A stretch of 64,000 nt of DNA, taken from positions 8,173 through 72,172 of the IMG/VR virus record IMGVR_UViG_3300035670_000153. One strand, given 5' to 3'. Source of the DNA: a virus. This document shows, piece after piece, positions 2,915 to 54,449 of the stretch. The position numbers and the translations under genes were made by a program. Numbering within the stretch: position 1 is the first letter of the stretch; every line of letters starts with the position of its first letter. The notes below the pieces were generated by a model, which was not told where the DNA came from, ran no database searches, and worked only from the letters and a program-made list of their open reading frames with translations.

Positions 2915-3472
2915 TTAATAATCAGATGGCAAGCTCCAAGACTCAACTAATCTTCTTGGTAGTTTTGATTGATGAACAGCAATTGTAGGTTCATAATACA
3001 TAATTTCAGGTTTACCTGTTTCTTCATTAATTAACATTAGCCAAGTTGCACTAACACCATTTGATGTAAATAATCCATTTGGGTCAGCTTGTGGTAAAAC
3101 ATATGGATTTAATGCATCATATTCTCCACCATCAACAAAATCTACTTTTTCAGGATTTGTATACTGTGTTGAATAGGGGAGTCCAAATCCCATACATCTA
3201 CCTATATATACAAATTTTCCATTTAAATTTTGACTATAAGCATAAGTTATTAATTTACTATTATCTCTTAATTCAAATATTTCTTTAGCCATTTTTTTCT
3301 CATAGAATTCTTTTATATCTGGCATTCCAATTTGATTGTTCATTTCGTTCATTATTTTCTTTGTAGTTTGTGCTTGTTGTACTTCTGAATCAACTGCAAC
3401 TGTTGTTGTGCCATCACATCCAACTATAAATAATATTCCAATCACCATTACCAATAAAATTAATTTCTTCAT
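2915..3472 (-). CDS. Putative lipoprotein
   Basis: Signal peptide ending in lipobox IVGC. Confidence 0.7.
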   Translation of the reverse strand: MKKLILLVMVIGILFIVGCDGTTTVAVDSEVQQAQTTKKIMNEMNNQIGMPDIKEFYEKKMAKEIFELRDNSKLITYAYSQNLNGKFVYIGRCMGFGLPYSTQYTNPEKVDFVDGGEYDALNPYVLPQADPNGLFTSNGVSATWLMLINEETGKPEIMYYEPTIAVHQSKLPRRLVESWSLPSDY

Positions 3473-4593: not shown

Positions 4594-4782
4594 TTATTTC
4601 CTGCCTATTATTAATGCTGAAAAAGTTGTTGATACAACATATCCTGATGATGATGATGTTGAATATTGAATTTCTACATCACATCCTTTCTTTTGAAGTT
4701 CTACAATGTCGGTGTTTAATTTGCTTTGAAATTCTTTAATATCTATACTTGAAATTACACTTGTAGCATTTATTTGTTTCAA
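4594..4782 (-). CDS. Hypothetical protein
   Basis: TTG start with GGAGTGG RBS; co-oriented with neighbours. Confidence 0.55.
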   Translation of the reverse strand: MKQINATSVISSIDIKEFQSKLNTDIVELQKKGCDVEIQYSTSSSSGYVVSTTFSALIIGRK

Positions 4783-4980
4783 AATTAACCACTCCTTTTA
4801 TTTATTATTTTCATTCAATCTATCAATTGCTTTTTCTAATTTATTCCATGCTTTTACTACCTCATCATTTTGTTTTTTATTAGCTAAATATTTTAATTGC
4901 ACAGCGTTTTGTATTAATCTAATAATTTGAGTTAATATTAATATAGTAATCATAATTGTAAAATATATATTCATTTACTA

Positions 4981-5442
4981 TTACTCACCTTCTAATTCTA
5001 GTTTATTTTTTAAAATAGTTATTTGATTTTTTATAAAATCTATAAATTGTTCTCTAATTTCTGAGTTTAAAAAATCATAAACATTATCAGGTGTTTCAAT
5101 CTTCATCCATTTCACTCTTTCTCCATTATTATGATTATTTAAAAATTCCTCCATTTCTTTTAATGATTTTAATGAATAAAAATTTTCCTCAATTAATGTA
5201 CGCTTATCAATCATATTTACCCTCTCTTCATTTAATATTTTCATTTGTTCATTTAATCTTTTGAATAATTCTAACCATTTGTCATCTTCTGCATAAAATA
5301 AGTTTTCTTTTTTCTCTCGTGCATATTTATCAAATTCTCTACCAATTATGTAATATAGTTGACCAAATCTTAAATCTTGATTAGATTTCCAAAATGTATT
5401 TAGTTCTTTAATTATTGGGTCTATTCGATTTATATCTCGCAT
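4981..5442 (-). CDS. Hypothetical protein (N-terminal MRDxxRI..DLRFGQL, DUF1040-like)
   Basis: Recognisable phage MRDINRI/LRFGQL motif; an internal RBS+ATG near 5214 suggests a fusion of two small genes or an internal start. Confidence 0.6.
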   Translation of the reverse strand: MRDINRIDPIIKELNTFWKSNQDLRFGQLYYIIGREFDKYAREKKENLFYAEDDKWLELFKRLNEQMKILNEERVNMIDKRTLIEENFYSLKSLKEMEEFLNNHNNGERVKWMKIETPDNVYDFLNSEIREQFIDFIKNQITILKNKLELEGE

Positions 5443-5875: not shown

Positions 5876-6106
5876 GTGTCCTCCTTTACCTATATTATTT
5901 TTATTATTGATAATTTTCTTCTAAATATTTTTCATATTCTTTAATTAATAAATTATATATTTCAATATTATTTTTTACTATTTTAGTATATTTAGATTGT
6001 TCATATCCATTTTTTATTCTATTGTCACTGATTTTATCTATTTTTATAAATTCACACAAATCAAATTTTAATATTGATATTGTTGTTATTATAATTGATT
6101 TAGGTA

Positions 6107-6511
6107 TCATTTTACACCATTACTTTCTAATTTAATACATTCAATATTTTTGATATCATAATAATTTGGTTCTAGATTGTGTTTTTTTATCCATCCATGA
6201 AATACTAAATTTAAAGCATTAGATAATTCTTTAACTTGTTCATCAGGTAAATCTAAAAGATAATCTTCTAATTCACATTCTCCTATTTCATCATTTACTT
6301 GATTATTAACATCTTCTAATATACTATCAACATCTATTGCATTTTCACTTAGTTCTCTATGTATTACAAATCCTATAAAGATATGTTTTATATCAGCATC
6401 ATTATCTATGTAATATTCTTTACCTGCTCTTATAGCATCTATTTTTGTAGGATATACATCGCATACATTTTCCCAATAATCCTTATTATTACTAAACGTC
6501 CATCCATTCAT
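6107..6511 (-). CDS. Hypothetical phage protein
   Basis: ORF with RBS; acidic composition. Confidence 0.65.
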   Translation of the reverse strand: MNGWTFSNNKDYWENVCDVYPTKIDAIRAGKEYYIDNDADIKHIFIGFVIHRELSENAIDVDSILEDVNNQVNDEIGECELEDYLLDLPDEQVKELSNALNLVFHGWIKKHNLEPNYYDIKNIECIKLESNGVK

Positions 6512-43831: not shown

Positions 43832-45034
43832 TTAAATAATTTCTATTAAATATTTTACAGTACAAGCTTCTTCTTTGTATACAACAATTTCATCTTTTCT
43901 TAACATTCCAGTTCCACCATGAGCATGTAAACAATTTGCTCCTTTACATGCACTTTGCAGTATATTTTGATTGAAATTATAATATTTACTATCAAAACTA
44001 TAAACATCATATGCTTTTCCATAAGCAGTCTCCATCAATAACATAAATCCTGTATGTTCAGACCCATGTGACCATCTTGAACCTGATACGCTTGTGTATC
44101 CTCTTGATTTATCAAAATCATTAGATAAATAAATCCCGCTGCCAAACATCTTACCCGTAATTACTGCATTTGGTCTTAATACAAGACCAGAATTTAAAAT
44201 ACTCCAAACATTTTCTGACCTAGTACCATGGAAAAACAAATCTGTTTTTAATATGTTTTCACTTTTTAAGTAATCATTATATTTATTTTGAGTTTTTTTA
44301 TTTGTAATCTTCCATCCTTGTTTAAATTTATCTTGCATAGAACCCATTTTTGATTTTATTGCTTTTATATCTTTATCATTTAACTCTTCAAATTCTATTC
44401 CTAAAGCTTCTAATATTGTTTGATTTTTTGTAACAACATCATCATCATTATTGTTGTTATCTTCAATTTTATTTTGTTTTACTTGACCTTCCATAATATC
44501 TAGTAAATCTTGTTCTCGATTTATTATAGATATGTAGTCATCTTTTGATTCTGCTAAATAATCTACTACTTTTTTCATTTTTCTTGGAATAGTTTTAAAT
44601 AATTGCAACAATACTTCATTGAATTTGTTACATTCATTTTCATTTCCAAGATTATAAAGTAAAGTCTGAGCTTCATCAACCATTAATTGTGTAACTTTAT
44701 CAGATGATATGGTATAATTATCTTTTACGGTTTGTCTAGCTATTGCTTGTAATCTCTCAACTATTTTTGAAATATTAGGATTATCTAATGATAAATATTC
44801 ATTTTTCTTTTTTATAATAGGTACTTCTATTAATCTTGTCTGGTCAACATATCCCTTTTTTATTTTGCTATTCAAAGTAGAATGCCATTTACCCATTGGA
44901 TATGTTTTTGATTGATATGATGTATTTCCTATCCTACCATATTGGACTTCAAATGTAGAACCTAATTCAATCATTTTATAATACTTATTATTATTTGCAT
45001 CTGCCTCTACCTTAACAAGATAAACTGTTTTCAT
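43832..45034 (-). CDS. WGR-domain PARP-like ADP-ribosyltransferase
   Basis: NNNKYY..YGRIG..KIKKGY (WGR), IPRKM (regulatory), catalytic H-Y-E triad in FHGT / GKMFGSGIY / DEIVVY. Confidence 0.9.
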   Translation of the reverse strand: MKTVYLVKVEADANNNKYYKMIELGSTFEVQYGRIGNTSYQSKTYPMGKWHSTLNSKIKKGYVDQTRLIEVPIIKKKNEYLSLDNPNISKIVERLQAIARQTVKDNYTISSDKVTQLMVDEAQTLLYNLGNENECNKFNEVLLQLFKTIPRKMKKVVDYLAESKDDYISIINREQDLLDIMEGQVKQNKIEDNNNNDDDVVTKNQTILEALGIEFEELNDKDIKAIKSKMGSMQDKFKQGWKITNKKTQNKYNDYLKSENILKTDLFFHGTRSENVWSILNSGLVLRPNAVITGKMFGSGIYLSNDFDKSRGYTSVSGSRWSHGSEHTGFMLLMETAYGKAYDVYSFDSKYYNFNQNILQSACKGANCLHAHGGTGMLRKDEIVVYKEEACTVKYLIEII

Positions 45035-45120: not shown

Positions 45121-46140
45121 TCAATGAGCGTATTTATCAGCTTCATGCACCATCATTAATTCATTATAAAAATCTTCACCAACTAAATTAATTAATTTTT
45201 GTTTTGATTTTTCTGTATTTGTATTATGTAGTCTCATATGAAATTTTATTAATTGACTAATATGTAAAATTTGAAGTATATTATTTTGGTAATTCTCATA
45301 GTCATATTCAGGAATTAGTTTTGATATCATTTCTAAGAATATTAATATCCCATCATAAGCTGATACATTTTCATGGTTATAAAAATGTGCTATATCAGTT
45401 GTTTCTCCTTTATGATTTATAAATGTTTTAGTAAATTCTTTTCCAATATCATGTAGGAATGTTGCAAATACAACATCATAATTAACTCCATGTTTTTGAA
45501 TAATATAATCTTTAGCTTTACGACAGTGTTGCCCTACTGTTAATGTATGATAAGGAGAATCTTGATTTATAATATCTAGTCTTTCAAATATTTTATCAAT
45601 ACTATATTTTTTTAAATCATTTATTTCATATTTAATATCAATTTTATCCCAACCTTCAAAATAATAAGGCACATCAAAATTTAAATACATTCTTTTAATA
45701 ACATCTACAGGAACATTTCTATCTCTATTTTTATTTTGTTCTAAACATTTGTCATATGGAGTAAGAATTAAAACAGCAATTTTTTCACAGTCAATATTAT
45801 TAATCTGTCTTAGGAATTCCATTCTCCTTTTACTTGATATGTTTGTAGCATCATATACTACATTATTTCCATTTAATAAGTTTGATTTAATTCTATCATG
45901 AACAATTTGAAATACATACCATTGATTACTTTGGTCATTTATATCTCCTAATACTTCTTCTCTAATTGAGTCTGATGAAACTATGATAGCATTATGTGTC
46001 TTTGCTATCTCTTGTGAATGATAAGATTTTCCACTAGCAGGTAATCCTATCATAAAAAATAATTTTGGTCTTAAATTTAATTTACTCATAACATCATCTT
46101 CTTTCTTTTTTATTTTTATGTCGTAAATATATAATATCAT
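45121..46140 (-). CDS. Polynucleotide kinase (AAA_33) fused to HD phosphohydrolase
   Basis: GLPASGKS, SSDSIR, DATN, R.R.VP; HD domain H...HDIGK..HE..SA..HM..D. Start probably MSKL ~46090. Confidence 0.85.
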   Translation of the reverse strand: MILYIYDIKIKKKEDDVMSKLNLRPKLFFMIGLPASGKSYHSQEIAKTHNAIIVSSDSIREEVLGDINDQSNQWYVFQIVHDRIKSNLLNGNNVVYDATNISSKRRMEFLRQINNIDCEKIAVLILTPYDKCLEQNKNRDRNVPVDVIKRMYLNFDVPYYFEGWDKIDIKYEINDLKKYSIDKIFERLDIINQDSPYHTLTVGQHCRKAKDYIIQKHGVNYDVVFATFLHDIGKEFTKTFINHKGETTDIAHFYNHENVSAYDGILIFLEMISKLIPEYDYENYQNNILQILHISQLIKFHMRLHNTNTEKSKQKLINLVGEDFYNELMMVHEADKYAH

Positions 46141-46195
46141 ATATTATTTACAATGTCAAGAGTTCTGTGAAAATTGATTACAGAACTCTTTATCA

Positions 46196-46642
46196 TTAAT
46201 TAACTTTATTAAATTCAACATTAAAATATTCTTGTACTTCTTTTTTAGCATCTTTAAAGCATTTAATATAATATTTTAAATCACTAACTTCTTTTTCTTT
46301 CAACTTCATATCTCTAATTAGTTGAATTACAACTCGAAACATAGAACCATCATCTTTATAACCAAACCATCCATTATGTATCCATTCCTCTGTTCCATCT
46401 GTATATTTAACTAATTTTTGCAGTGACCTACAACCATCGCTTTTAGTTACAAACCTAATAAAATTATTAATTATAGTAATCTGTTCACTATTATCTAATG
46501 GTTCACGTTTTTCTTTTCTTATTTTTTTTGTAGATGTTTCAGAATCAGAATCCTCTTCAAAATCGTTTTCATTTTCTAACTCAACATCTAAATCTAACTC
46601 TAATTCATCTGTAATTAAGCTATTTTTTGACATAATGCACAA
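46196..46642 (-). CDS. Hypothetical protein
   Basis: GGAGG RBS; acidic N-terminus. Confidence 0.6.
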   Translation of the reverse strand: MCIMSKNSLITDELELDLDVELENENDFEEDSDSETSTKKIRKEKREPLDNSEQITIINNFIRFVTKSDGCRSLQKLVKYTDGTEEWIHNGWFGYKDDGSMFRVVIQLIRDMKLKEKEVSDLKYYIKCFKDAKKEVQEYFNVEFNKVN

Positions 46643-46673
46643 CCTCCAATTATTTTATTTTAATATTATTATA

Positions 46674-47996
46674 TTATTCATCTTGAACGCTTTGTGCTTC
46701 TTCAATATCTAATACATCATCGGATTTAATTATACCTTCTAAAACCTTAAATGTAAAGTTTTTATTTTTTAATGCAGTAAATTTTTCTCTGTTTTCAATT
46801 CTTACCACAATACCTTCTCTGATATGAGATTTACCAATTGGGTCTACTCCATCAGTATATTTATTTACTCTTTGCATTAAATCTTCTTGAGTAGTATATA
46901 TAAATTTTTCAAATACAGGAACATGTTCAATTCCCATTTGTTCACATCTCATTTGTGTTAATTCTGTAGGATATTCTACTACAATTCCATCTTCATTTGT
47001 CATAGTCATTCTATATACAAATACCTTATTTTCTCCAACATTACATCTATATGTAAACCTAGTAGTTTCACCATATTGTTTAATAAATTCTTTATCTTTT
47101 GTTTTACTATTATTGCATTCAGGCATAATTAATTGATTACTTTCTGTATATCCTACAATTTCTCCATAAACTGTCTCTCCTTTATGTAATTTACCTAGGA
47201 AAAAATTATGCCATTGTTCTCTGAATTTATTTGTCCCATAAAATCCACCATCAAATGTATTCAATATGACTCTTCTTGAACCTGAAACATAATCCCATTC
47301 TTGTGTAGATTTAAATTTTACACCTAAAATATAAAGCAAATTTAAAATGAATCTAGGTAATTTACTATTCCATTTAGATTGAGTAATTTTAAATGCTCTA
47401 CTTTCTCTTAAACTTGTTCCATGCATTTTTAGAGATATAGTACAAATATCACCTTCTTTAAATTTAGCCATATTATAAGCTAATTGTTCAGTGTCTCTGT
47501 GTTCTGAAAAATAAGGAAATTTATTTTTTAAACTTATTTTCTTAGAATTACTTACTTTCATTCCTGTATTTTTTGAACCATTTATATGATTTGTTTGAGG
47601 AATATACTTATTACAAATTTCTACCCCATTTAGGATTGAAATTGTGTCACCTTCTTTTAAAGTACCAACATCGGTAAAACTATGTAAACTATTGACATTT
47701 AACAATAAGCCATCTGATTTTTCACCTCTTAATTTTACTGATGAAACATGTCTTTTGTTTGGGTCTAAATATCCACCAATTTCATTCCCTTGTTCATCTT
47801 TCTTACGCAACAAATTATTTGCCTCACAAAAACCCATATTTAATCTTCCATCTGTTGGGAAATATACCATCATATCTCCAATTTTTACATCTAATCCAAC
47901 TATAGTATCATTTCCAAATACTGTTGCTACTTGTAATCTATCTGCATTAGAATGTTTTCTTAACTCTTTTATTCTTACAATATATCCACAATACAT
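46674..47996 (-). CDS. ATP-dependent RNA ligase (DRB0094/Rnl5-like, N-terminal OB domain)
   Basis: HSNADRL..LRGEKSDG OB domain; motif I KMHGTS, III YGEIVG, IV EGIVVR, V LKNK. Confidence 0.82.
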   Translation of the reverse strand: MYCGYIVRIKELRKHSNADRLQVATVFGNDTIVGLDVKIGDMMVYFPTDGRLNMGFCEANNLLRKKDEQGNEIGGYLDPNKRHVSSVKLRGEKSDGLLLNVNSLHSFTDVGTLKEGDTISILNGVEICNKYIPQTNHINGSKNTGMKVSNSKKISLKNKFPYFSEHRDTEQLAYNMAKFKEGDICTISLKMHGTSLRESRAFKITQSKWNSKLPRFILNLLYILGVKFKSTQEWDYVSGSRRVILNTFDGGFYGTNKFREQWHNFFLGKLHKGETVYGEIVGYTESNQLIMPECNNSKTKDKEFIKQYGETTRFTYRCNVGENKVFVYRMTMTNEDGIVVEYPTELTQMRCEQMGIEHVPVFEKFIYTTQEDLMQRVNKYTDGVDPIGKSHIREGIVVRIENREKFTALKNKNFTFKVLEGIIKSDDVLDIEEAQSVQDE

Positions 47997-49105
47997 TATA
48001 CAATACCTGCTTTCTTTAATATATTTTTATTTATTTCAATTACTAATTCATTTATTTTATTTTCATCTGGTTTTAATGGTAATTCAGTATGTTTAATAGA
48101 AAATTTTAAATCTTTTTCTGCTTTATCAATCATATTAAAAATTTCTGAATAATCTTTATTATTATCTTTATTAATTACATAATCTCCATTCCTTAATGCC
48201 ATCATAAACTCATGTTCATGTGCTCTATTTGTAATAACTCCTTTACCTTCTAATATTTCTTTCCCCATTCTCATAAGTCTTATAATATGCATTACATGCT
48301 TATTTAAATGGATATCATCTTTCTTATTGTTTCTATGATTAAGAGAATCATAATCTTTAATAACATTTTTCCATTCAGATAATATAGATAATAAATCTCT
48401 TAATGGATAATGTTTAAGATTTAAATTTAAAAATATTTCTTCATCAAAATCTGTTTTGTTTGATTTATCAAGAAATAAGTTAATATCTTTCCCATCAAAG
48501 CAATGATAATTACGTTCTATATGTTCTCTTTGATGATTTATACTGTCTAATATGTGTTTCTCTTTTTCTTTTTGAGGATATGAGTCACGTGCTAAAGCAT
48601 TTTGTAATCTTCTTAATTGAGCTGTAGCATATCCACAAAAGGAATGTATTGCTCTTTGAGATAAAAATAAATTGATATTATCTCTTAATATTTTACCTTC
48701 ATTACTTAATACAAAAATATCTTCTTCTCTAGTTCCAAATATTTCTAGTACATTGGGATTGCAATTCAATAAAAGATTAATAATTTGTTTAAAATAATAA
48801 ATAGTAGTATCTGTTTTAGTTTCTACAAATGGCTTATCTGTATTATTCATAGTCAGTAAATCATAATAACTATTATGTGCAACTCCTCTAATATCAATAT
48901 CACTATTTTCATTATTTAATCCATAAGCATATGAACCACCTAATGTAAGTATCATTAAATTATCTTTAAATTTATCTTTTAAAAAATCATAATCATTACT
49001 TGTATAAATTGTTTTTTGTATCTTTTTTGAATAATTATTTCCCATATTCATCTCCCCATATATTTTTAATATTATGTTTCGATTTTTTATCTGCTTTTTT
49101 TTCAT
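47996..49105 (-). CDS. Pol-beta-family nucleotidyltransferase (YcgL/RlaP-like)
   Basis: GGSYAYG...SDIDIRG, CNPN..E, KH.MH..RL; start probably ~49045. Confidence 0.82.
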   Translation of the reverse strand: MKKKQIKNRNIILKIYGEMNMGNNYSKKIQKTIYTSNDYDFLKDKFKDNLMILTLGGSYAYGLNNENSDIDIRGVAHNSYYDLLTMNNTDKPFVETKTDTTIYYFKQIINLLLNCNPNVLEIFGTREEDIFVLSNEGKILRDNINLFLSQRAIHSFCGYATAQLRRLQNALARDSYPQKEKEKHILDSINHQREHIERNYHCFDGKDINLFLDKSNKTDFDEEIFLNLNLKHYPLRDLLSILSEWKNVIKDYDSLNHRNNKKDDIHLNKHVMHIIRLMRMGKEILEGKGVITNRAHEHEFMMALRNGDYVINKDNNKDYSEIFNMIDKAEKDLKFSIKHTELPLKPDENKINELVIEINKNILKKAGIV

Positions 49106-49439
49106 GGTCTTTTTTTATTTTTTCTATTTTATTTTGCAGTTTATTATAATTTTTAATAATGAATCCATCTTTTTCTTCTTCATCTAAAAATATAATTTTT
49201 TCTAATTGTAATATTTCACCTTCTAAAAATCTTGCGTTGATTATAATTCTATTAATTTCCTCTTTTAAAGTTTCAGTTTGTAATATTGAAACTTTGTCCT
49301 GTGTTTCTAACATACAATTATATTGTATATTATATTGTCTGCTAGTATCACGTAGTAAAAGACTCAATTCGTTCATTTCATCCATTAAACTTTCAAGCTT
49401 TAAATCATTTTCACTTTTTAAAAAATTCAATATCTTCAT
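49035..49439 (-). CDS. Coiled-coil hypothetical protein
   Basis: GGAGG RBS. Confidence 0.6.
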   Translation of the reverse strand: MKILNFLKSENDLKLESLMDEMNELSLLLRDTSRQYNIQYNCMLETQDKVSILQTETLKEEINRIIINARFLEGEILQLEKIIFLDEEEKDGFIIKNYNKLQNKIEKIKKDHEKKADKKSKHNIKNIWGDEYGK

Positions 49440-49597
49440 AACAATTCCTCCTTTAAATTTGGTTTATATTTTATATTTCTATTTAATATTAACATATAAG
49501 TTTTACTCTGTCAATAGAAAAAATAAAAATAAGTTAAACTAATTTTTATAATTAATTTAACTTATTTTTTATATTAAAAACATATTATAGGCAATAT

Positions 49598-51073
49598 TTA
49601 AAAATAGTAATTTTCTATTTTCTTAACTAATGTATCAGTTCCATTTTCTGCTAAATGAATAAAATCAAAAATCTTTTCTGACCATCCTGCTATTATATTT
49701 GTATGATGTCCTTTAAATTGTTGTGTTCCATATCCCATTAAATCAACAGCATGAATCCAAACATTATTATTTATTTTATTTCTATATTCATTTGCAATTT
49801 TTTGACAAGGTACTTTATTATTATTATACCATGATGATACTCTATCCATATCCCATCCTGAATTAATTTCATTATCAGATAATACAATAATTCTATCTAC
49901 CTGTATATTATTATTAATTAAATATCTGAATGGTAATGTTATATCTGTTCCTCCACCATCAATTCTCATTCTTTCAGCATTTGATATAATTCCATTTGTG
50001 CTTGGCATAGTAACGTTTCTAATATTTGTATCAAAAGTAACTAATATTGTATCTTCACAAACATAATTACCCATAGACATTAATAGTGTTGCTATTTCTG
50101 AACATTTAATTGTACTCTTATTACTTATTGCACTCGACATAGAGCCTGATACATCACAAGCAATTAAAGTTTTACCTTTAAGTGTTTGTACGTTTTGAGT
50201 ACTTAATTTTATAGCTTCTTCTAAAATATTATAAACCTTAGATGAACCTAGATTTTCTTGTTGCAATGTTTTATATGCTGAAAAATATCTGAAAGGTAAC
50301 TGCTTATTGTTAAGAACAGCATCTCTATTTGATAAAAAATCGTAAACCATATCAATATTATTAGGATTTGCTTTTATGATGTTTCTTAAATTTCTAAGCA
50401 TTGCCATATATCCAACTTTTTTACTTGCTATTAATCCTTCCCATACTTCTTTTGTATTACCTTTTGCAGATAATTCTGTTTCCCAAGTATAAGGTGTTTC
50501 TAATTTATCTTCTAATAATCTTTTAAACATATCATTTTGAACTTCTGTTTTTGCTTTAGGATGTGTTAAACAAACTAAATCTTTAAGTTTTATATCTTTA
50601 CTTTGGCTATTATATTTTTGTAATTGATACTCATTAAATGTAAGTAATCTATCAGCTAATCCCTTTTTAACAGAGTTTGGGATTGGTTTACCATAAGTAT
50701 TAATTATATATGATAGTATTTCTGTCATATCATCTACTCTTTCAATTACATTGTTAATAGTTTTTCTTGTAAAAGGTTTTCCATTAACATGATTAGCTAA
50801 CTCTCCAACTAAAACGTGAGATATACTACGTAAATGCATTTCTTTTCTTGCAAACAATGCTAAATTAGCAATGAATTCTGGTTCTTTATTTAATACATTA
50901 CGAATATTTTCAACTATTTCATTTGAATTATCACCATAAAACTTTGATTCATTAAATAATGATGTAAGAACTTGTGTAACTAATTTTTCTTTATCAGACA
51001 TTGTAAAAGCTTTAACACCTGATTTGTTTTCAGTAATTGAATTATCACTTGCATTTTTATTAAACTTTGACAT
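49598..51073 (-). CDS. rsr: Ro60/Rsr TROVE-domain RNA-binding protein with vWA domain
   Basis: MSKFN, FY, ARKEMHLRS, YQLQKY, THPK, TWE..LS, GYMAMLRNLRN, QLPFRY, vWA DVSGSM, GGGTD, SDNE, AGWSEKIF. Confidence 0.93.
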   Translation of the reverse strand: MSKFNKNASDNSITENKSGVKAFTMSDKEKLVTQVLTSLFNESKFYGDNSNEIVENIRNVLNKEPEFIANLALFARKEMHLRSISHVLVGELANHVNGKPFTRKTINNVIERVDDMTEILSYIINTYGKPIPNSVKKGLADRLLTFNEYQLQKYNSQSKDIKLKDLVCLTHPKAKTEVQNDMFKRLLEDKLETPYTWETELSAKGNTKEVWEGLIASKKVGYMAMLRNLRNIIKANPNNIDMVYDFLSNRDAVLNNKQLPFRYFSAYKTLQQENLGSSKVYNILEEAIKLSTQNVQTLKGKTLIACDVSGSMSSAISNKSTIKCSEIATLLMSMGNYVCEDTILVTFDTNIRNVTMPSTNGIISNAERMRIDGGGTDITLPFRYLINNNIQVDRIIVLSDNEINSGWDMDRVSSWYNNNKVPCQKIANEYRNKINNNVWIHAVDLMGYGTQQFKGHHTNIIAGWSEKIFDFIHLAENGTDTLVKKIENYYF

Positions 51074-51205: not shown

Positions 51206-51303
51206 ATAAATATTGTCTATCTGATTGTAATCTCAATATAATATTATTATATAACTTTATAGTTGTCAATACTTAAATAAAAATAATATTTAATATTAAT
51301 AAT

Positions 51304-51395: not shown

Positions 51396-51576
51396 GTGAT
51401 TATGGTCTCTCCCATCGTCACCTTTATAAAACTATTTCTAGTATTGGACAGTAAAGGTCTTGCCCTATGCAAACGCTAGAATCGCCCCTAGCTCTTAATA
51501 ATACCTACATCGAGCAAAGGATTCTTCAATCATTTTATAATATTGAGTAGTGTAAAGTGATTGGTATTTAGAAAGA

Positions 51577-51660: not shown

Positions 51661-51665
51661 ATATT

Positions 51666-51737
51666 TGTGAATAAGAGGACTCGAACCTCTATCTAACAAC
51701 TTGAATCGTTAACTTTGACCAATTAAGTTATATTCAC
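51666..51737 (-). tRNA. Aberrant tRNA-like gene (6-nt anticodon loop TTCAAG; no encoded CCA)
   Basis: Perfect acceptor GTGAATA/TATTCAC, D arm ACTT/AAGT, T arm AGAGG-TTCGAGT-CCTCT; anticodon arm AACGA-TTCAAG-TTGTT. Confidence 0.7.
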
Positions 51738-51769
51738 ATAGTTAAAATATCATTTACTTTTATTACTAA

Positions 51770-51843
51770 TGGAGAGTAATATAGGAATTGAACCTATGAA
51801 TGTGGAGTTGCAGTCCACCACCATACCACTTGGTTAATTACTC
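51770..51843 (-). tRNA. tRNA-Cys(GCA)
   Basis: GTGGA-CTGCAAC-TCCAC; TCCA end. Confidence 0.93.
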
Positions 51844-51850
51844 ATATTTA

Positions 51851-51978
51851 TTAAAAGAAAAACGACATCAGTATTTTTTGTTATCCTGCCATTAGACGAA
51901 TTCATAAATTATGAATAATAGGACTCGAACCTAATATCTACACCTTGGAATGGAGTAACTGATATCTACACTTTTTAA
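51851..51978 (-). ncRNA. Y-RNA-like ncRNA #1 (YrlA-like permuted tRNA mimic)
   Basis: AGTGTA-GATATCAGT-TACTCC ... ACTGATGTC-GTTTTTC; insert has a T arm (TAGG-TTCGAGT-CCTA), closed acceptor hairpin and D arm. Confidence 0.75.
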
Positions 51979-51981
51979 TAA

Positions 51982-52057
51982 TGGTCTACTCATCAGGACT
52001 CGAACCTGAAACCTCATCACCCCAAATGACGAATTCTACCAATTGAAATATGAGTAG
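51982..52057 (-). tRNA. tRNA-Pro(TGG)
   Basis: CGTCA-TTTGGGG-TGATG; ACCA end. Confidence 0.9.
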
Positions 52058-52064
52058 ATATTTT

Positions 52065-52163
52065 TTTGTTTTAGAGAAAATCAATATTTGTATTTTTATT
52101 TTATCACGCTAGAAACGTGACTATTATGTAAGAAGTAACAAATATTTACACTTCTAAAACAAA
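52065..52163 (-). ncRNA. Y-RNA-like ncRNA #2
   Basis: TTTGTTTTAGA-AGTGTA-AATATTTGT-TACTTC ... ACAAATATT-GATTTTC-TCTAAAACAAA; internal hairpin TCACG/CGTGA. Confidence 0.72.
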
Positions 52164-52196
52164 TTGTTATTAATAATTAATCTCTTTATCATAAAT

Positions 52197-52304
52197 ATAT
52201 TTTATTATTTAGAGAAAATCTATATTTGTATGTAAACCCTCGTCTGAGAGTATCTTATATCGGAAAGAAGTAACAAATATATACACTTCTAAATAATAAA
52301 TATA
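52197..52304 (-). ncRNA. Y-RNA-like ncRNA #3
   Basis: 17-bp terminal stem, AGTGTA-TATATTTGT-TACTTC ... ACAAATATA-GATTTTC. Confidence 0.72.
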
Positions 52305-52372
52305 CTTACTTCAATAAAAATTGTAAGGTTTAATTTAATAGAATTAAACGGCAATTTAATCCTAAATAATTT

Positions 52373-52444
52373 TACTTGAGAAAATCAAATAAAGTATTTA
52401 TTTTCACCAAAAGAAAGAAGTAACTTTATTTTACACTGCAAGTA
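52373..52444 (-). ncRNA. Y-RNA-like ncRNA #4 (minimal)
   Basis: TACTTG-C-AGTGTA-AAATAAAGT-TACTTC ... ACTTTATTT-GATTTTC-T-CAAGTA. Confidence 0.7.
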
Positions 52445-52447
52445 TAA

Positions 52448-52523
52448 TGGCTGGAAGACAAGGATTCGAACCTCGATTATCTGAGTCAAAGTCAGATGTC
52501 ATAACCAATTAGACCATCTTCCA
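52448..52523 (-). tRNA. tRNA-Gln(TTG)
   Basis: TCTGA-CTTTGAC-TCAGA; U1-A72; GCCA end. Confidence 0.93.
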
Positions 52524-52609
52524 TTATTGGAATATATTTTGTAAAAGAATTAAATCCATTTACGCATATATTATAAGTATAATTCTTTATAAAAATAATT
52601 TTAATTTTA

Positions 52610-53275
52610 TTATTTAATAACTGGTTTAAATTCTCCAAAATATTTTTCTTCTGCTTCTTTTCTAGCATTTACAGCATATTGAAAAACTTCATATCTGCCT
52701 AGAAATATATTCTTATTATTTATTCTAATATAGGCATACCATTTTTGTCTTTTATCATCCCATCTTACACCCATTACTCCACTTTTATTTGTTGATACAA
52801 TATTTTTATTTCTTGCATTTTCTTGACTAGTACAACATCTTAAATTATATTTAATGTTATTTAATGGATTTCTATCAATATGGTCTACTACAATATTATT
52901 ATTATCATCAACAACATTCATTATAAATCTGTGCAATTTAACATGTTTACTATCTATAGTTGTACATACATAATTATTTTTGCTTTCTATACACCATTTA
53001 TACATACTACATCTTTCAACATCATTTAAATCAATTATAGCTTTATTAATAGGATTCCCTTGAATATTATATAAAATAATTTCAGCATAATTATCATATA
53101 TGATTATTTCATTTACATCATTTCTATTTCTTTCTTGTTTTGATTCATCAATAATTTTATTATGTCTTTTTAGTTGTTGATAATGTTTACCACATAATAT
53201 CATATTCCATTTTTTGCTATTTGTCATCTTATGTGTCTCATTTTCAAAACAACCACAAATATTACAAGTATACAT
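52610..53275 (-). CDS. HNH homing endonuclease with AP2 domain
   Basis: LHRFIM, VDHIDRNPLNN..NLR..T..EN..N, SGVMGV.W...KW.A.I...LG. Confidence 0.9.
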   Translation of the reverse strand: MYTCNICGCFENETHKMTNSKKWNMILCGKHYQQLKRHNKIIDESKQERNRNDVNEIIIYDNYAEIILYNIQGNPINKAIIDLNDVERCSMYKWCIESKNNYVCTTIDSKHVKLHRFIMNVVDDNNNIVVDHIDRNPLNNIKYNLRCCTSQENARNKNIVSTNKSGVMGVRWDDKRQKWYAYIRINNKNIFLGRYEVFQYAVNARKEAEEKYFGEFKPVIK

Positions 53276-53312
53276 TACTTCACCTTCTTTTATTTATTGA
53301 TTGATAAAATTT

Positions 53313-53478
53313 TATTAGGAGAAATTCGATATTGGTTCATATGTTATATTTTGTGCTTATTTAACCTGTCAAAACACAGGACTTAGATTAAAGCACCCCA
53401 TCTAAGTTTTGTTTTTTTAAAATACGAAATTTTAAAATTCTTATAATTTGAAGTAACCAATATCTACACTACCTAATA
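53313..53478 (-). ncRNA. Y-RNA-like ncRNA #5 (large structured insert)
   Basis: TATTAGG-T-AGTGTA-GATATTGGT-TACTTC ... ACCAATATC-GAATTTC-T-CCTAATA; two internal hairpins. Confidence 0.72.
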
Positions 53479-53522
53479 TCTTACCTTTTCTGCTTTTCTT
53501 ACTATTTCATAAAACAATTTGT

Positions 53523-53593
53523 TAATCCGAGAAAAAATGCATAGAGTGTTTTTTCGTAAAATGAAGTAACCCTAATGCTACACCTTCGGATTA
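53523..53593 (-). ncRNA. Y-RNA-like ncRNA #6 (minimal)
   Basis: TAATCCGA-AGGTGTA-GCATTAGGGT-TACTTC ... ACTCTATGC-ATTTTTTC-TCGGATTA. Confidence 0.68.
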
Positions 53594-53667
53594 TGGCAGG
53601 GATGGAAAGAATTGAACTCTCGACAATGGTTTTGGAGACCATTGTTTTACCATTAAACTACATCCCT
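53594..53667 (-). tRNA. tRNA-Trp(CCA)
   Basis: ATGGT-CTCCAAA-ACCAT; GCCA end. Confidence 0.93.
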
Positions 53668-53675
53668 ATAAGTAA

Positions 53676-53806
53676 TATTCAGAGAACAACTATTAGAAAT
53701 TTTTTACGTTTTACCATTAAACTACATCTGCATGTTGCAGATGATTGGACTCGAACCAATATCTTATCAACCCATTTGAAGAAATTCCAATATACACTTC
53801 TAAATA
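53676..53806 (-). ncRNA. Y-RNA-like ncRNA #7 (YrlA-like permuted tRNA mimic)
   Basis: AGTGTA-TATTGGAA...TTCTAATA stem; T arm ATTGG-TTCGAGT-CCAAT, acceptor hairpin CATCTGCA-ACA-TGCAGATG, D arm GTTT-AATGGT-AAAAC. Confidence 0.75.
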
Positions 53807-53809
53807 CTA

Positions 53810-53884
53810 TGGTAGCTCATACCAGAATTGAACTGATATTTTGTGGTTGAAAACCACATGTCCTTACCATTAGACGAATGAGCC
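53810..53884 (-). tRNA. tRNA-Glu(TTC)
   Basis: TGTGG-TTTTCAA-CCACA; ACCA end. Confidence 0.9.
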
Positions 53885-53890
53885 ATATTA

Positions 53891-54024
53891 TAGGTGAGAA
53901 AATCAAATAGTCTTTTATCGTACTCTACCATTTGAGCTATAACACATCATATGATGTATTAGTGAGACTCGAACTCACAACCCCGTCATTAACATTGAAG
54001 AAGTACTATTTTACACTACACCTA
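53891..54024 (-). ncRNA. Y-RNA-like ncRNA #8 (YrlA-like permuted tRNA mimic)
   Basis: TAGGTG-T-AGTGTA-AAATAGT ... ACTATTT-GATTTTC-T-CACCTA; T arm GTGAG-TTCGAGT-CTCAC, acceptor hairpin, D arm GCTC-AAATGGTA-GAGT. Confidence 0.77.
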
Positions 54025-54028
54025 AATT

Positions 54029-54104
54029 TGGAAGCAGAAGCAAGATTTGAACTTGCGATTTTCAGATTATGAGTCTGACGAGATGACCACTTCTCTATTC
54101 TGCA
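54029..54104 (-). tRNA. tRNA-Met(CAT), initiator-like
   Basis: TCAGA-CTCATAA-TCTGA; 1:72 mismatch and A11-U24; TCCA end. Confidence 0.88.
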
Positions 54105-54129
54105 ATATATAATCTCTTACTGTATTACT

Positions 54130-54158
54130 ATCTTATCATGTTATTTAATATCTGTCAA
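54130..54158 (-). promoter_or_regulatory. sigmaA-type promoter for the tRNA/Y-RNA cluster
   Basis: TTGACA-17 nt-TAAGAT just upstream of tRNA-Met. Confidence 0.7.
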
Positions 54159-54336: not shown

Positions 54337-54449
54337 AATACTAGTCTACCATCATACTTTATATTTGTCAAGTACTTTTAAAAATTTTTTATTATACATT
54401 TAAATATAAAAACAACGACATTCAAACGCACTAAATACAATGGTGCTAC

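Follow-up and report, generated by a model that had tools for sequence, protein, structure and literature searches.

Ro60 binds the stem of Y RNAs, whose distal part tethers effectors such as PNPase; in YrlA (Y RNA-like A; Rfam RF02553), the available text of Chen 2014 (PMC4201824) gives a domain order of V loop, T arm, closed acceptor-like hairpin and D arm, together with a 5' motif, GNCGAAN0-1G. The same text reports relatives of a second RNA, YrlB, only in Salmonella enterica. Published work describes one to three Y RNAs per locus and detected only types with a tRNA-like domain, the phage maximum being the three of CcrColossus (Chen 2014 Table S2, PMC4201824). As for phage proteins, the accessible part of PMC12135203 describes the Ro60 of phage phiLo as binding two upstream Y-like RNAs and forming a ternary complex with host PNPase in vitro; the accessible part of a preprint (PMC11482910) reports a Ro60-like protein by which phage Bas63 counters the ppl defence system, and its authors suggest that some of the adjacent tRNA genes are Y RNAs. 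Here we describe a window of 64,000 nucleotides, positions 8173-72172 of the 72,172-base IMG/VR virus record IMGVR_UViG_3300035670_000153 (completeness 44%, CheckV estimate), in which eight RNA elements, E1 to E8, precede a phage Ro60 (TROVE) gene. With a probability of about 0.82, we read them from their sequences as Y RNAs of the phage's own Ro60 and assign them to a divergent branch, of Clostridia type, within the bacterial YrlA/YrlB class. What is newly recognised is this divergent branch with a module of its own, unusually large mixed arrays, and permuted topologies.

A first-pass annotation of this DNA had proposed eight minus-strand elements with one common architecture, and all eight were found where it had placed them (Table 1), 778 to 2951 nt upstream of the Ro60 start codon (51073) and on the same strand. 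Specifically, an outer helix of 6-13 bp is followed by AGUGUA, an inner helix of 7-9 bp, UUACUUC or a near variant, and an insert, after which the inner strand returns, followed by a U-rich 3' motif ending UUC-UC and by the returning outer strand. The unpaired motifs had been called nearly invariant in the form AGUGUA, UACUUC/UUCUUC and GAUUUUC. They occur as described, with variants from copy to copy, and the last holds as such in only four of the eight. AGUGUA is present in seven copies (E3 carries GGUGUA), the motif after the inner stem reads UUACUUC in five (ACUUC in E1, UUUCUUC in E2, UUACUCC in E8), and the remaining 3' motifs are GUUGUUC, AUUUUUUC, GAAUUUC and GUUUUUC. The stems differ in sequence yet stay complementary, as had been noted with stem pairs that were quoted rightly: standard pairs fill 130 of 136 stem cells, and both sides have changed in 14 of the 17 pairs. 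The inserts, put earlier at about 15 to 110 nt, measure 15-113 nt. In addition, minimum-free-energy folds recovered the outer and inner stems in all eight elements, with z-scores from -1.70 to -3.57.

Building a covariance model from the copies had been suggested as a check. At a threshold of E <= 1, the model R1, seeded with E5, E6, E7 and one foreign sequence, recovers all eight elements without a further match in the window; the E values of the five copies that were not seeds run from 1.5e-8 to 3.7e-4. A second model, R2, was built from 28 short family members, none of them from the window, with the structure predicted by RNAalifold; on the window it found E5, E3, E6, E7 and E8 (E 7e-11 to 6e-6) together with one spurious match (E 0.5). 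The minus-strand spacer 51396-51576, 181 non-coding nt between tRNA-Tyr and tRNA-Ser(tga), gave neither a model match nor any similar phage DNA and, with a fold z-score of -1.09, was rejected as a ninth element.

Across 123 family members in a model-fitted alignment, 90.7% of the stem cells pair, versus 53.8% in shuffles and 36-46% with slid partners, and each of the 17 pairs has changed on both sides. When 28 members were aligned by MAFFT alone and folded with RNAalifold, with no fitting to a model, the inner stem again emerged, as did part of the outer one, with compensatory changes in 10 of the 12 predicted pairs; the MAFFT alignments A1-A3 were left out of the counts because short elements or 3' motifs were misplaced in them. 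Each position of the unpaired UUACUUC is kept in 118-123 of the 123 members (U-A-C in 120-122), and covariation links the G that precedes UGUA to the C that precedes UC (GC in 90, UA in 24, CG in 7). The unpaired motifs are nearly invariant in contexts whose GC content ranges from 23 to 57%. The observation of eight related elements is confirmed, far beyond chance.

To look at the motif independently of any protein, a 14-base pattern was scanned over IMG/VR, giving at least 117 loci, most single hits being expected by chance. R1 was run on 109 of these, that is, on all but L111-L118. Among the matches listed, 18 records were R1-positive; a whole-record Pfam search found TROVE in 14 of them, and tblastn added L054, with a divergent TROVE gene directly 3' of the element, and L012, with a C-terminal TROVE piece at the contig end. 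The co-occurrence that had been put forward as a check therefore stands at 16 of 18 model-positive records, the other two being fragments of 12-14% estimated completeness, versus 0 of 38 R1-negative records from the pattern scan. Both tools have limits: the Pfam search missed the divergent gene of L054/G004, so that 'no TROVE' by Pfam is not proof of absence, and R1 is not fully sensitive, since L077, R1-negative, and L112, outside the R1 search, both have TROVE beside the pattern. L075, which fits a loose regular expression, is R1-negative in a record without TROVE and was rejected as a chance match.

The link was equally apparent starting from the protein. The window's TROVE protein used singly retrieved no relative from the viral contigs, and an alignment of 12 TROVE proteins was required; from its 588 relatives the best 80 were taken, some of these loci being near-duplicates. 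They hold 136 R1 matches at E <= 1, 135 of which lie on the TROVE strand and nearly all either up to about 1 kb upstream of the gene or 0-2 kb downstream of it. By hand count, 58 of the 80 loci have at least one such match; 89 matches with E < 0.01, all on the TROVE strand, fall in 41 loci. In 80 TROVE loci of bacterial genomes, 86 matches at E <= 0.1 were found in 45 loci, every one on the TROVE strand, upstream of the gene in Clostridia and downstream in Flavobacterium and other Bacteroidota.

These counts bear on the idea that the elements are Ro60-independent tRNA mimics or decoys, which would soak up anticodon nucleases or serve the RlaP, ligase and kinase proteins, the stem binding some other protein and TROVE being a mere neighbour. 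Such a role would suit the tRNA-like modules in three of the eight elements, the exposed anticodon-like arms in the related loci L054 and L130, and the RNA-repair genes directly downstream. It fits poorly with TROVE as the sole common neighbour across very different contexts, with matches that keep so consistently to the vicinity and strand of that gene, and with the five window elements that lack a tRNA-like part and keep the module; moreover, crAss001 and Olaya have no annotated RNA ligase or RlaP within 3 kb on either side of TROVE. We consider this alternative unlikely, and the structure, its covariation and its association with TROVE genes are matters of direct observation.

The array of the window is not unique, and several related phages likewise carry five elements or more. 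Over 83 sources, matches number nine in L130, eight in the window, six in L142 and five each in L140 and L136; L130, which has the closest TROVE protein (62% identity), shows at least 11 elements by eye before its contig ends. Bacterial or metagenome-assembled-genome loci hold up to five elements, and chromosomal Clostridium loci two or three, with no interleaved tRNAs. Members that had gone unannotated were found in three named phages. In Bacteroides phage crAss001, two standard and two permuted members occupy a 900-nt gap past gp96. In the other two phages, R1 and the Rfam YrlA model each match twice, upstream of gp191 in Streptomyces phage BRock (YrlA scores of 32-33 bits) and upstream of the TROVE gene in Xanthomonas phage Olaya (40 and 50 bits). 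Searches of the literature available without subscription turned up no description of an array exceeding three Y RNAs, nor of the AGUGUAG/UUACUUC motif.

How, then, do the elements relate to YrlA as published? All eight lie within 4 kb of a TROVE gene and on its strand, the arrangement that Chen 2014 used as a criterion, and E1, E2 and E8 have the YrlA domain order (cmscan alignments for E1 and E2; folds). E3 to E7 lack the tRNA-like domain and are accordingly Y RNAs in a wider sense, not YrlA. The Rfam YrlA model aligned E2 over its full length (positions 1-114) and the T-acceptor-D core of E1 (model positions 24-84). A YUAY sequence, which in YrlA opens the V loop, follows the inner stem as UUAC in six of the eight; E2 has UUUC and E1 GUAC instead. 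In A. (Clostridium) straminisolvens JCM 21531, an R1 match at L225 2701-2832 corresponds to contig positions 6065-6196, and the accessible text of Chen 2014 (Table S1, PMC4201824) places the YrlA of this species at 6068-6194. The family's tRNA-like members are thus YrlA as published, because the R1 match coincides with the listed RNA. This C. straminisolvens member carries the AGUGUAG, UUACUUC, UUCUC module, and two R1 neighbours of it, one short and one long, are missing from the species' row in the available Table S1. All together, synteny, stem covariation, TROVE linkage in both directions and the identity of the C. straminisolvens YrlA support the earlier proposal that the elements are Y RNAs.

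Several points weigh against reading the elements in this way. The Rfam YrlA scores, 27.5 bits for E1 and 26.2 bits for E2, are far under the gathering threshold of 69 bits. Phage YrlAs already in print do not reach this value either (42.3, 30.5 and 29.9 bits in CcrColossus, 32.5 bits in Bxz1), and it therefore fails to separate phage members from non-members. GNCGAAN0-1G is absent, and AGUGUAG stands in its place (family consensus G-N-A-G-U-G-N-A-G). The first-pass annotation correctly held that the conserved loop is not the canonical one; the module motifs AGUGUAG, UUACUUC and UUCUC also depart from the published GNCGAA. CCGAAG at the outer-stem end occurs in E3 only. The published C. straminisolvens YrlA itself has GGGUAGUGUAG at that place, so that the motif is not kept throughout the published set. 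As to the models, R2 misses E1 and E2 and covers only part of E4 (E 0.24), most of the R1 seeds come from the window, the alignments A5 and A7 were fitted to R1 and the 123-member alignment is model-fitted, which favours the modelled pairs. By hand count, R1 finds nothing at E <= 1 in 22 of the 80 viral TROVE loci, and it matches nothing in Bxz1, CcrColossus or Vibrio phage phiKT1024; the stem module is therefore specific to some clades, not universal. Finally, the partners of the variable modules are guesses, and many inserts may be under weak constraint, since only that of E1 is conserved in L130, the closest relative.

Table 1. Coordinates of the array and the genes around it in the window, followed by unusual family members in other loci (E, E value; z, fold z-score).
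Feature	Position	Strand	R1 match span	Description and evidence
E1	53891-54024	-	54025-53889	YrlA type: stem module, V loop, T arm, closed acceptor hairpin, D arm; R1 E 6.7e-6; z -3.16, T, acceptor and D hairpins visible
E2	53676-53806	-	53806-53675	YrlA type; R1 E 3.7e-4; z -1.84
E3	53523-53593	-	53593-53522	Minimal Y RNA, short-loop class; apical loop 15 nt ending GAAAAAAC; begins directly 3' of tRNA-Trp; R1 E 1.8e-5; R2 E 1.9e-9
E4	53313-53478	-	53478-53312	113-nt insert, three hairpins, not tRNA-like; R1 E 7e-5; z -2.93
E5	52373-52444	-	52445-52371	Minimal Y RNA, 21-nt loop with GGUGAAAA; R1 seed; R2 E 7.2e-11; z -2.76
E6	52197-52304	-	52295-52205	37-nt insert (one 6-bp hairpin), outer stem 13 bp; R1 seed; R2 E 3.7e-9; z -3.45
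E7	52065-52163	-	52160-52067	40-nt insert (one 8-bp hairpin); R1 seed; R2 E 5.4e-8; z -3.57
E8	51851-51978	-	51980-51848	tRNA-like insert: T arm, short closed hairpin, D-like arm; R1 E 1.5e-8; R2 E 5.9e-6; z -1.70
Six bracketing tRNA genes	51770-54104	-		ARAGORN and Rfam tRNA, 52-71 bits
tRNA-Met	54104-54029	-
tRNA-Glu	53884-53810	-
tRNA-Trp	53667-53594	-
tRNA-Gln	52523-52448	-
tRNA-Pro	52057-51982	-
tRNA-Cys	51843-51770	-
Promoter-like site	54130-54158	-		TTGACA, 17-nt spacer, TG-extended -10; 26 nt upstream of tRNA-Met; consensus match only
Promoter-like site	51241-51269	-		Ahead of tRNA-Ser(gct) and the Ro60 gene
HNH/AP2 homing-endonuclease-like open reading frame	52610-53275	-		Pfam HNH_3 1.9e-6, AP2 4e-4; between E4 and tRNA-Gln
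Ro60 gene	49598-51073	-		TROVE ring and vWA domain; Pfam TROVE 1.1e-33, vWA_Ro60 2.7e-12
RNA-repair gene row downstream of Ro60	45121-49105	-		Pfam and PHROGs
RlaP-type nucleotidyltransferase	49105-47996	-		PHROGs nucleotidyltransferase 3.8e-46
RNA ligase	47996-46674	-		PHROGs 3.8e-70
Polynucleotide-kinase-like AAA_33 and HD protein	46140-45121	-		PHROGs polynucleotide kinase 2.3e-20
Permuted members, L212 (crAss001)	4627-4770; about 4870-5010	+
Permuted member, L012	3193-3316	-
Acceptor-less tRNA insert, L054	2993-3114	+		D arm, anticodon-like arm, T arm
Acceptor-less tRNA inserts, L130	165-294; 1755-1893	+		D arm, anticodon-like arm, T arm

The inserts are as varied as the stem module is constant. 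Those of E1, E2 and E8 consist of a T arm with GUUCGAGUC loop, a closed hairpin replacing the acceptor stem, and a D arm, a YrlA-type module that the first-pass annotation had overlooked and that is absent from E3 to E7. E3 and E5 have short GAAA-rich loops, and E4, E6 and E7 carry one to three unrelated hairpins. A crude sorting of the 123 members by regular expressions gave 52 with short loops (<=30 nt, many ending GAAA(A)C), 24 of YrlA type, 19 with a T arm only, seven with D arm, anticodon-like arm and T arm, in which the inner helix takes the place of the acceptor stem, and 21 others. The acceptor-less tRNA inserts of L054 and L130 expose an anticodon-like loop, and the L054 member scores 53.9 bits as an Rfam tRNA over model positions 5-66. 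In addition, L012 and crAss001 show a circularly permuted topology: these members are tRNA-shaped with open acceptor ends, and the stem module, closed by a small hairpin, stands in for the anticodon arm; they match the Rfam tRNA model, at 46.6 and 40.3 bits, with a long stretch inserted.

Comparison with L130 shows how fast this part changes. E1 and the first element of L130 are 74% identical over 109 nt, and a stretch of an L130 element shares 89% identity with the first 36 nt of E8, in which the 5' arm of the inner stem lies; with the E1 insert the only one conserved there, inserts turn over quickly. This turnover, together with the homing endonuclease inside the array, is what could be expected of decaying repeats, that is, duplicated pseudo-tRNAs or mobile-element relics with no present function. 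Yet compensatory changes hold both helices despite the divergence of the primary sequence, and the module persists in phages whose hosts are Bacteroidota, Actinomycetota, Pseudomonadota or Clostridia-like, which makes decay extremely improbable in our judgement. The HNH/AP2 reading frame itself is outside the RNA system.

The array had been described as interleaved with tRNAs, and six tRNA genes were indeed found among the elements. Five of the eight elements begin 0-4 nt past a tRNA 3' end and four stop 6-8 nt before a tRNA 5' end; the same tight packing is seen in L142, L140 and L136. The elements were rejected as plain tRNAs, in the sense of an open-acceptor cloverleaf with an anticodon arm: ARAGORN calls none of the eight, and the Rfam tRNA scores of E1 (22.3 bits) and E8 (17.2 bits) are under the cut-off of 29. 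They were also rejected as intrinsic terminators, no minus-strand terminator-like site overlapping any of them.

The distance of only 0-8 nt from tRNA ends, and the lack of predicted promoters or terminators for single elements, could equally suit cis-acting spacers of a tRNA operon, serving processing, stability or punctuation and never existing as stable RNAs. Against such spacers, chromosomal Clostridium elements adjoin TROVE with no tRNA nearby (zero near the elements of L219-L223 and L225), and E4, E6 and E7 each lack a tRNA on at least one side. Plain processing stems would have no need of unpaired motifs that stay near-invariant over such a range of GC content, and TROVE is absent from all 38 model-negative records examined, each of them listed through a chance match to the pattern. 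We regard the spacer explanation as very unlikely. Taken together, the three alternatives to Y RNAs of the phage's own Ro60 hold a modest minority share of the probability.

The promoter-like site 54158-54130 is likely the start of the array transcript, judging from its match to consensus. A perfect TTGACA is found at four minus-strand promoter-like sites (54371-54343, 54158-54130, 51269-51241 and 49514-49486); those at 54371 and 54158 have the longer upstream context AAAAGUACUUGACA in common, which may be a phage promoter consensus. A few further RNAs were noted around the arrays. At 51665-51738 (minus strand) lies a tRNA-like gene with a non-standard anticodon loop, called 'tRNA-???' with a two-base anticodon by ARAGORN and scored at 56.8 bits as an Rfam tRNA; inspected by eye, its loop counts 6 nt if the stem is drawn with 6 bp and 8 nt if it is drawn with 5 bp, and L130 has three similar calls. 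A phage-encoded transfer-messenger RNA lies near the array of L066 (4467-4815, minus strand, 119.5 bits), and a near-threshold match to manA RNA stands among the tRNAs of BRock (L215, 5079-5242, plus strand, 49.7 bits versus a cut-off of 55.2).

Downstream of the array, the gene at 51073-49598 had been called a phage Ro60, an assignment borne out by its matches to Pfam TROVE and the Ro60 vWA domain. MIDAS residues are kept in this vWA domain (D307, S309 and S311 are invariant in 12 relatives), and the best solved relative is the Ro60 of Thermus phage phiLo (9KOP/9L5Y, E 4.9e-33, residues 14-481). Directly past the stop codon, at 49520-49590 (minus strand), an AT-rich hairpin with a U run resembles a terminator; the terminator scan missed it because it requires three G-C pairs. 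The RNA-repair row follows. Within the row of Ro60 and repair genes, the minus-strand reading frames 49035-49439 (134 aa) and 46196-46642 (148 aa) have no Pfam or PHROGs match; a protein with PARP catalytic and WGR domains (43832-45034, minus strand, Pfam 1.9e-20 and 2.6e-5) ends the row. With genes for RlaP, an RNA ligase and a kinase-HD protein so close by, a role in RNA repair or counter-defence suggests itself.

The closest TROVE proteins from bacterial genomes are those of Clostridium species and other Clostridia (53-63% identity), and a Clostridia-like host is therefore likely; the GC content of the window is 24.8%. A DNA search of a phage collection found no close relative of the window, matching only tRNA and HNH pieces, and protein identity to that collection is at most 32%. 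The record is that of an uncultured virus, and the five sequencing runs listed for window positions 51800-54110 are all DNA metagenomes.

From these features a working model can be drawn. The constant module would be the Ro60-binding part, made of the outer 5'/3' helix, the internal loop, the inner helix (9 bp) and the single-stranded UUACUUC; in the loop, 5' A-G-UGUA-G would face 3' G-N-UUUU-C-UC, with the G and C as a covarying pair, and the near-invariant UUACUUC may contact Ro60 directly. The distal insert would be the variable module, whether tRNA mimic (E1, E2, E8), GAAA-rich loop (E3, E5) or unrelated hairpins (E4, E6, E7). Array and interleaved tRNAs would be co-transcribed from the promoter-like site ahead of tRNA-Met. 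Because the elements abut tRNA ends, host RNase P and tRNA 3'-end enzymes, in cutting the tRNA borders, would release Y RNAs ending at the foot of the outer helix, so that Y RNA maturation is apparently tied to tRNA processing. The modules might then tether Ro60 to different partners, such as a host PNPase-like exoribonuclease, tRNA-handling enzymes, or the phage RlaP, ligase or kinase-phosphatase; alternatively, they might gate the Ro60 cavity. The purpose could be RNA quality control or repair during infection, or counter-defence.

A programmable adaptor or decoy role, also put forward in the first-pass annotation, is one interpretation of this architecture. In its boldest form, which we offer tentatively and hold to be rather doubtful, the phages of this clade would carry a library of interchangeable Ro60 adaptors, one protein-binding module joined to many effector modules (YrlA-type tRNA mimics, acceptor-less tRNAs exposing an anticodon-like arm, T-arm-only forms, minimal GAAA loops and circularly permuted, tRNA-shaped forms with open acceptor ends) and cut from tRNA arrays by host tRNA-processing enzymes, each RNA sending Ro60, together with a tethered host nuclease or the phage repair enzymes, to a different RNA class or decoying a different tRNA-targeting defence nuclease of the host. 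If so, the array would be a fast-evolving counter-defence repertoire; the available text of the Bas63 preprint (PMC11482910), in which a phage Ro60-like protein is reported to counter a defence system, supplies a link to defence.

One stem module, in any case, identifies a far more extensive set, most of it unannotated and present in at least 41 of 80 viral (best 80 of 588) and 45 of 80 bacterial TROVE loci, with arrays of eight in the window and at least nine in its closest relative, most members having no tRNA-like domain. This set provides natural module-swap variants for finding what each module recruits, and RNA immunoprecipitation sequencing and mutagenesis are feasible because members occur in the cultivable crAss001, BRock and Olaya. 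R1 and R2 could annotate such RNAs, which the Rfam YrlA model misses at its cut-off.

In comparison with the systems described so far, the Yrn1-Rsr-PNPase complex (RYPER) of Deinococcus radiodurans resembles the window in its working model, the stem binding Ro60 and the distal end tethering an effector, whereas Yrn1 is of a separate lineage, with a metazoan-like helix and no multi-copy array in the accessible text (PMC4201824). YrlB of Salmonella Typhimurium (rsr-yrlBA-rtcBA operon) is, in the available description, a second, smaller Rsr-bound Y RNA beside YrlA with a presumed Ro60-binding motif in common; no sequence relation to E3-E7 was detected, no direct comparison having been made. CcrColossus has three tandem YrlAs upstream of a phage TROVE gene, one of them annotated as a tRNA (Chen 2014 Table S2); it differs in having no R1 match and a different stem-module sequence. 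Separately, two weak R2 matches (E 0.004 and 0.067) at CcrColossus (L210) 3011-3197 (minus strand), just upstream of the published YrlAs, may be further Y RNAs. Phage phiLo, whose protein is the closest solved relative, likewise places Y-like RNAs (Yrl1 and Yrl2) just upstream of a phage Ro60 gene, but these are two in number and were identified by a CGAA motif, and the accessible part of PMC12135203 mentions neither a tRNA-like module nor interleaved tRNAs. Lastly, YrlA and the window family are alike in the long 5'/3' stem with an internal loop and in the YUAY-type sequence past the inner stem. The window family differs in adding the near-invariant UUACUUC and UUCUC, in the five of its eight copies without a tRNA-like domain, and in the number of copies itself, eight in a single window where the largest phage count in Chen 2014 Table S2 is three.

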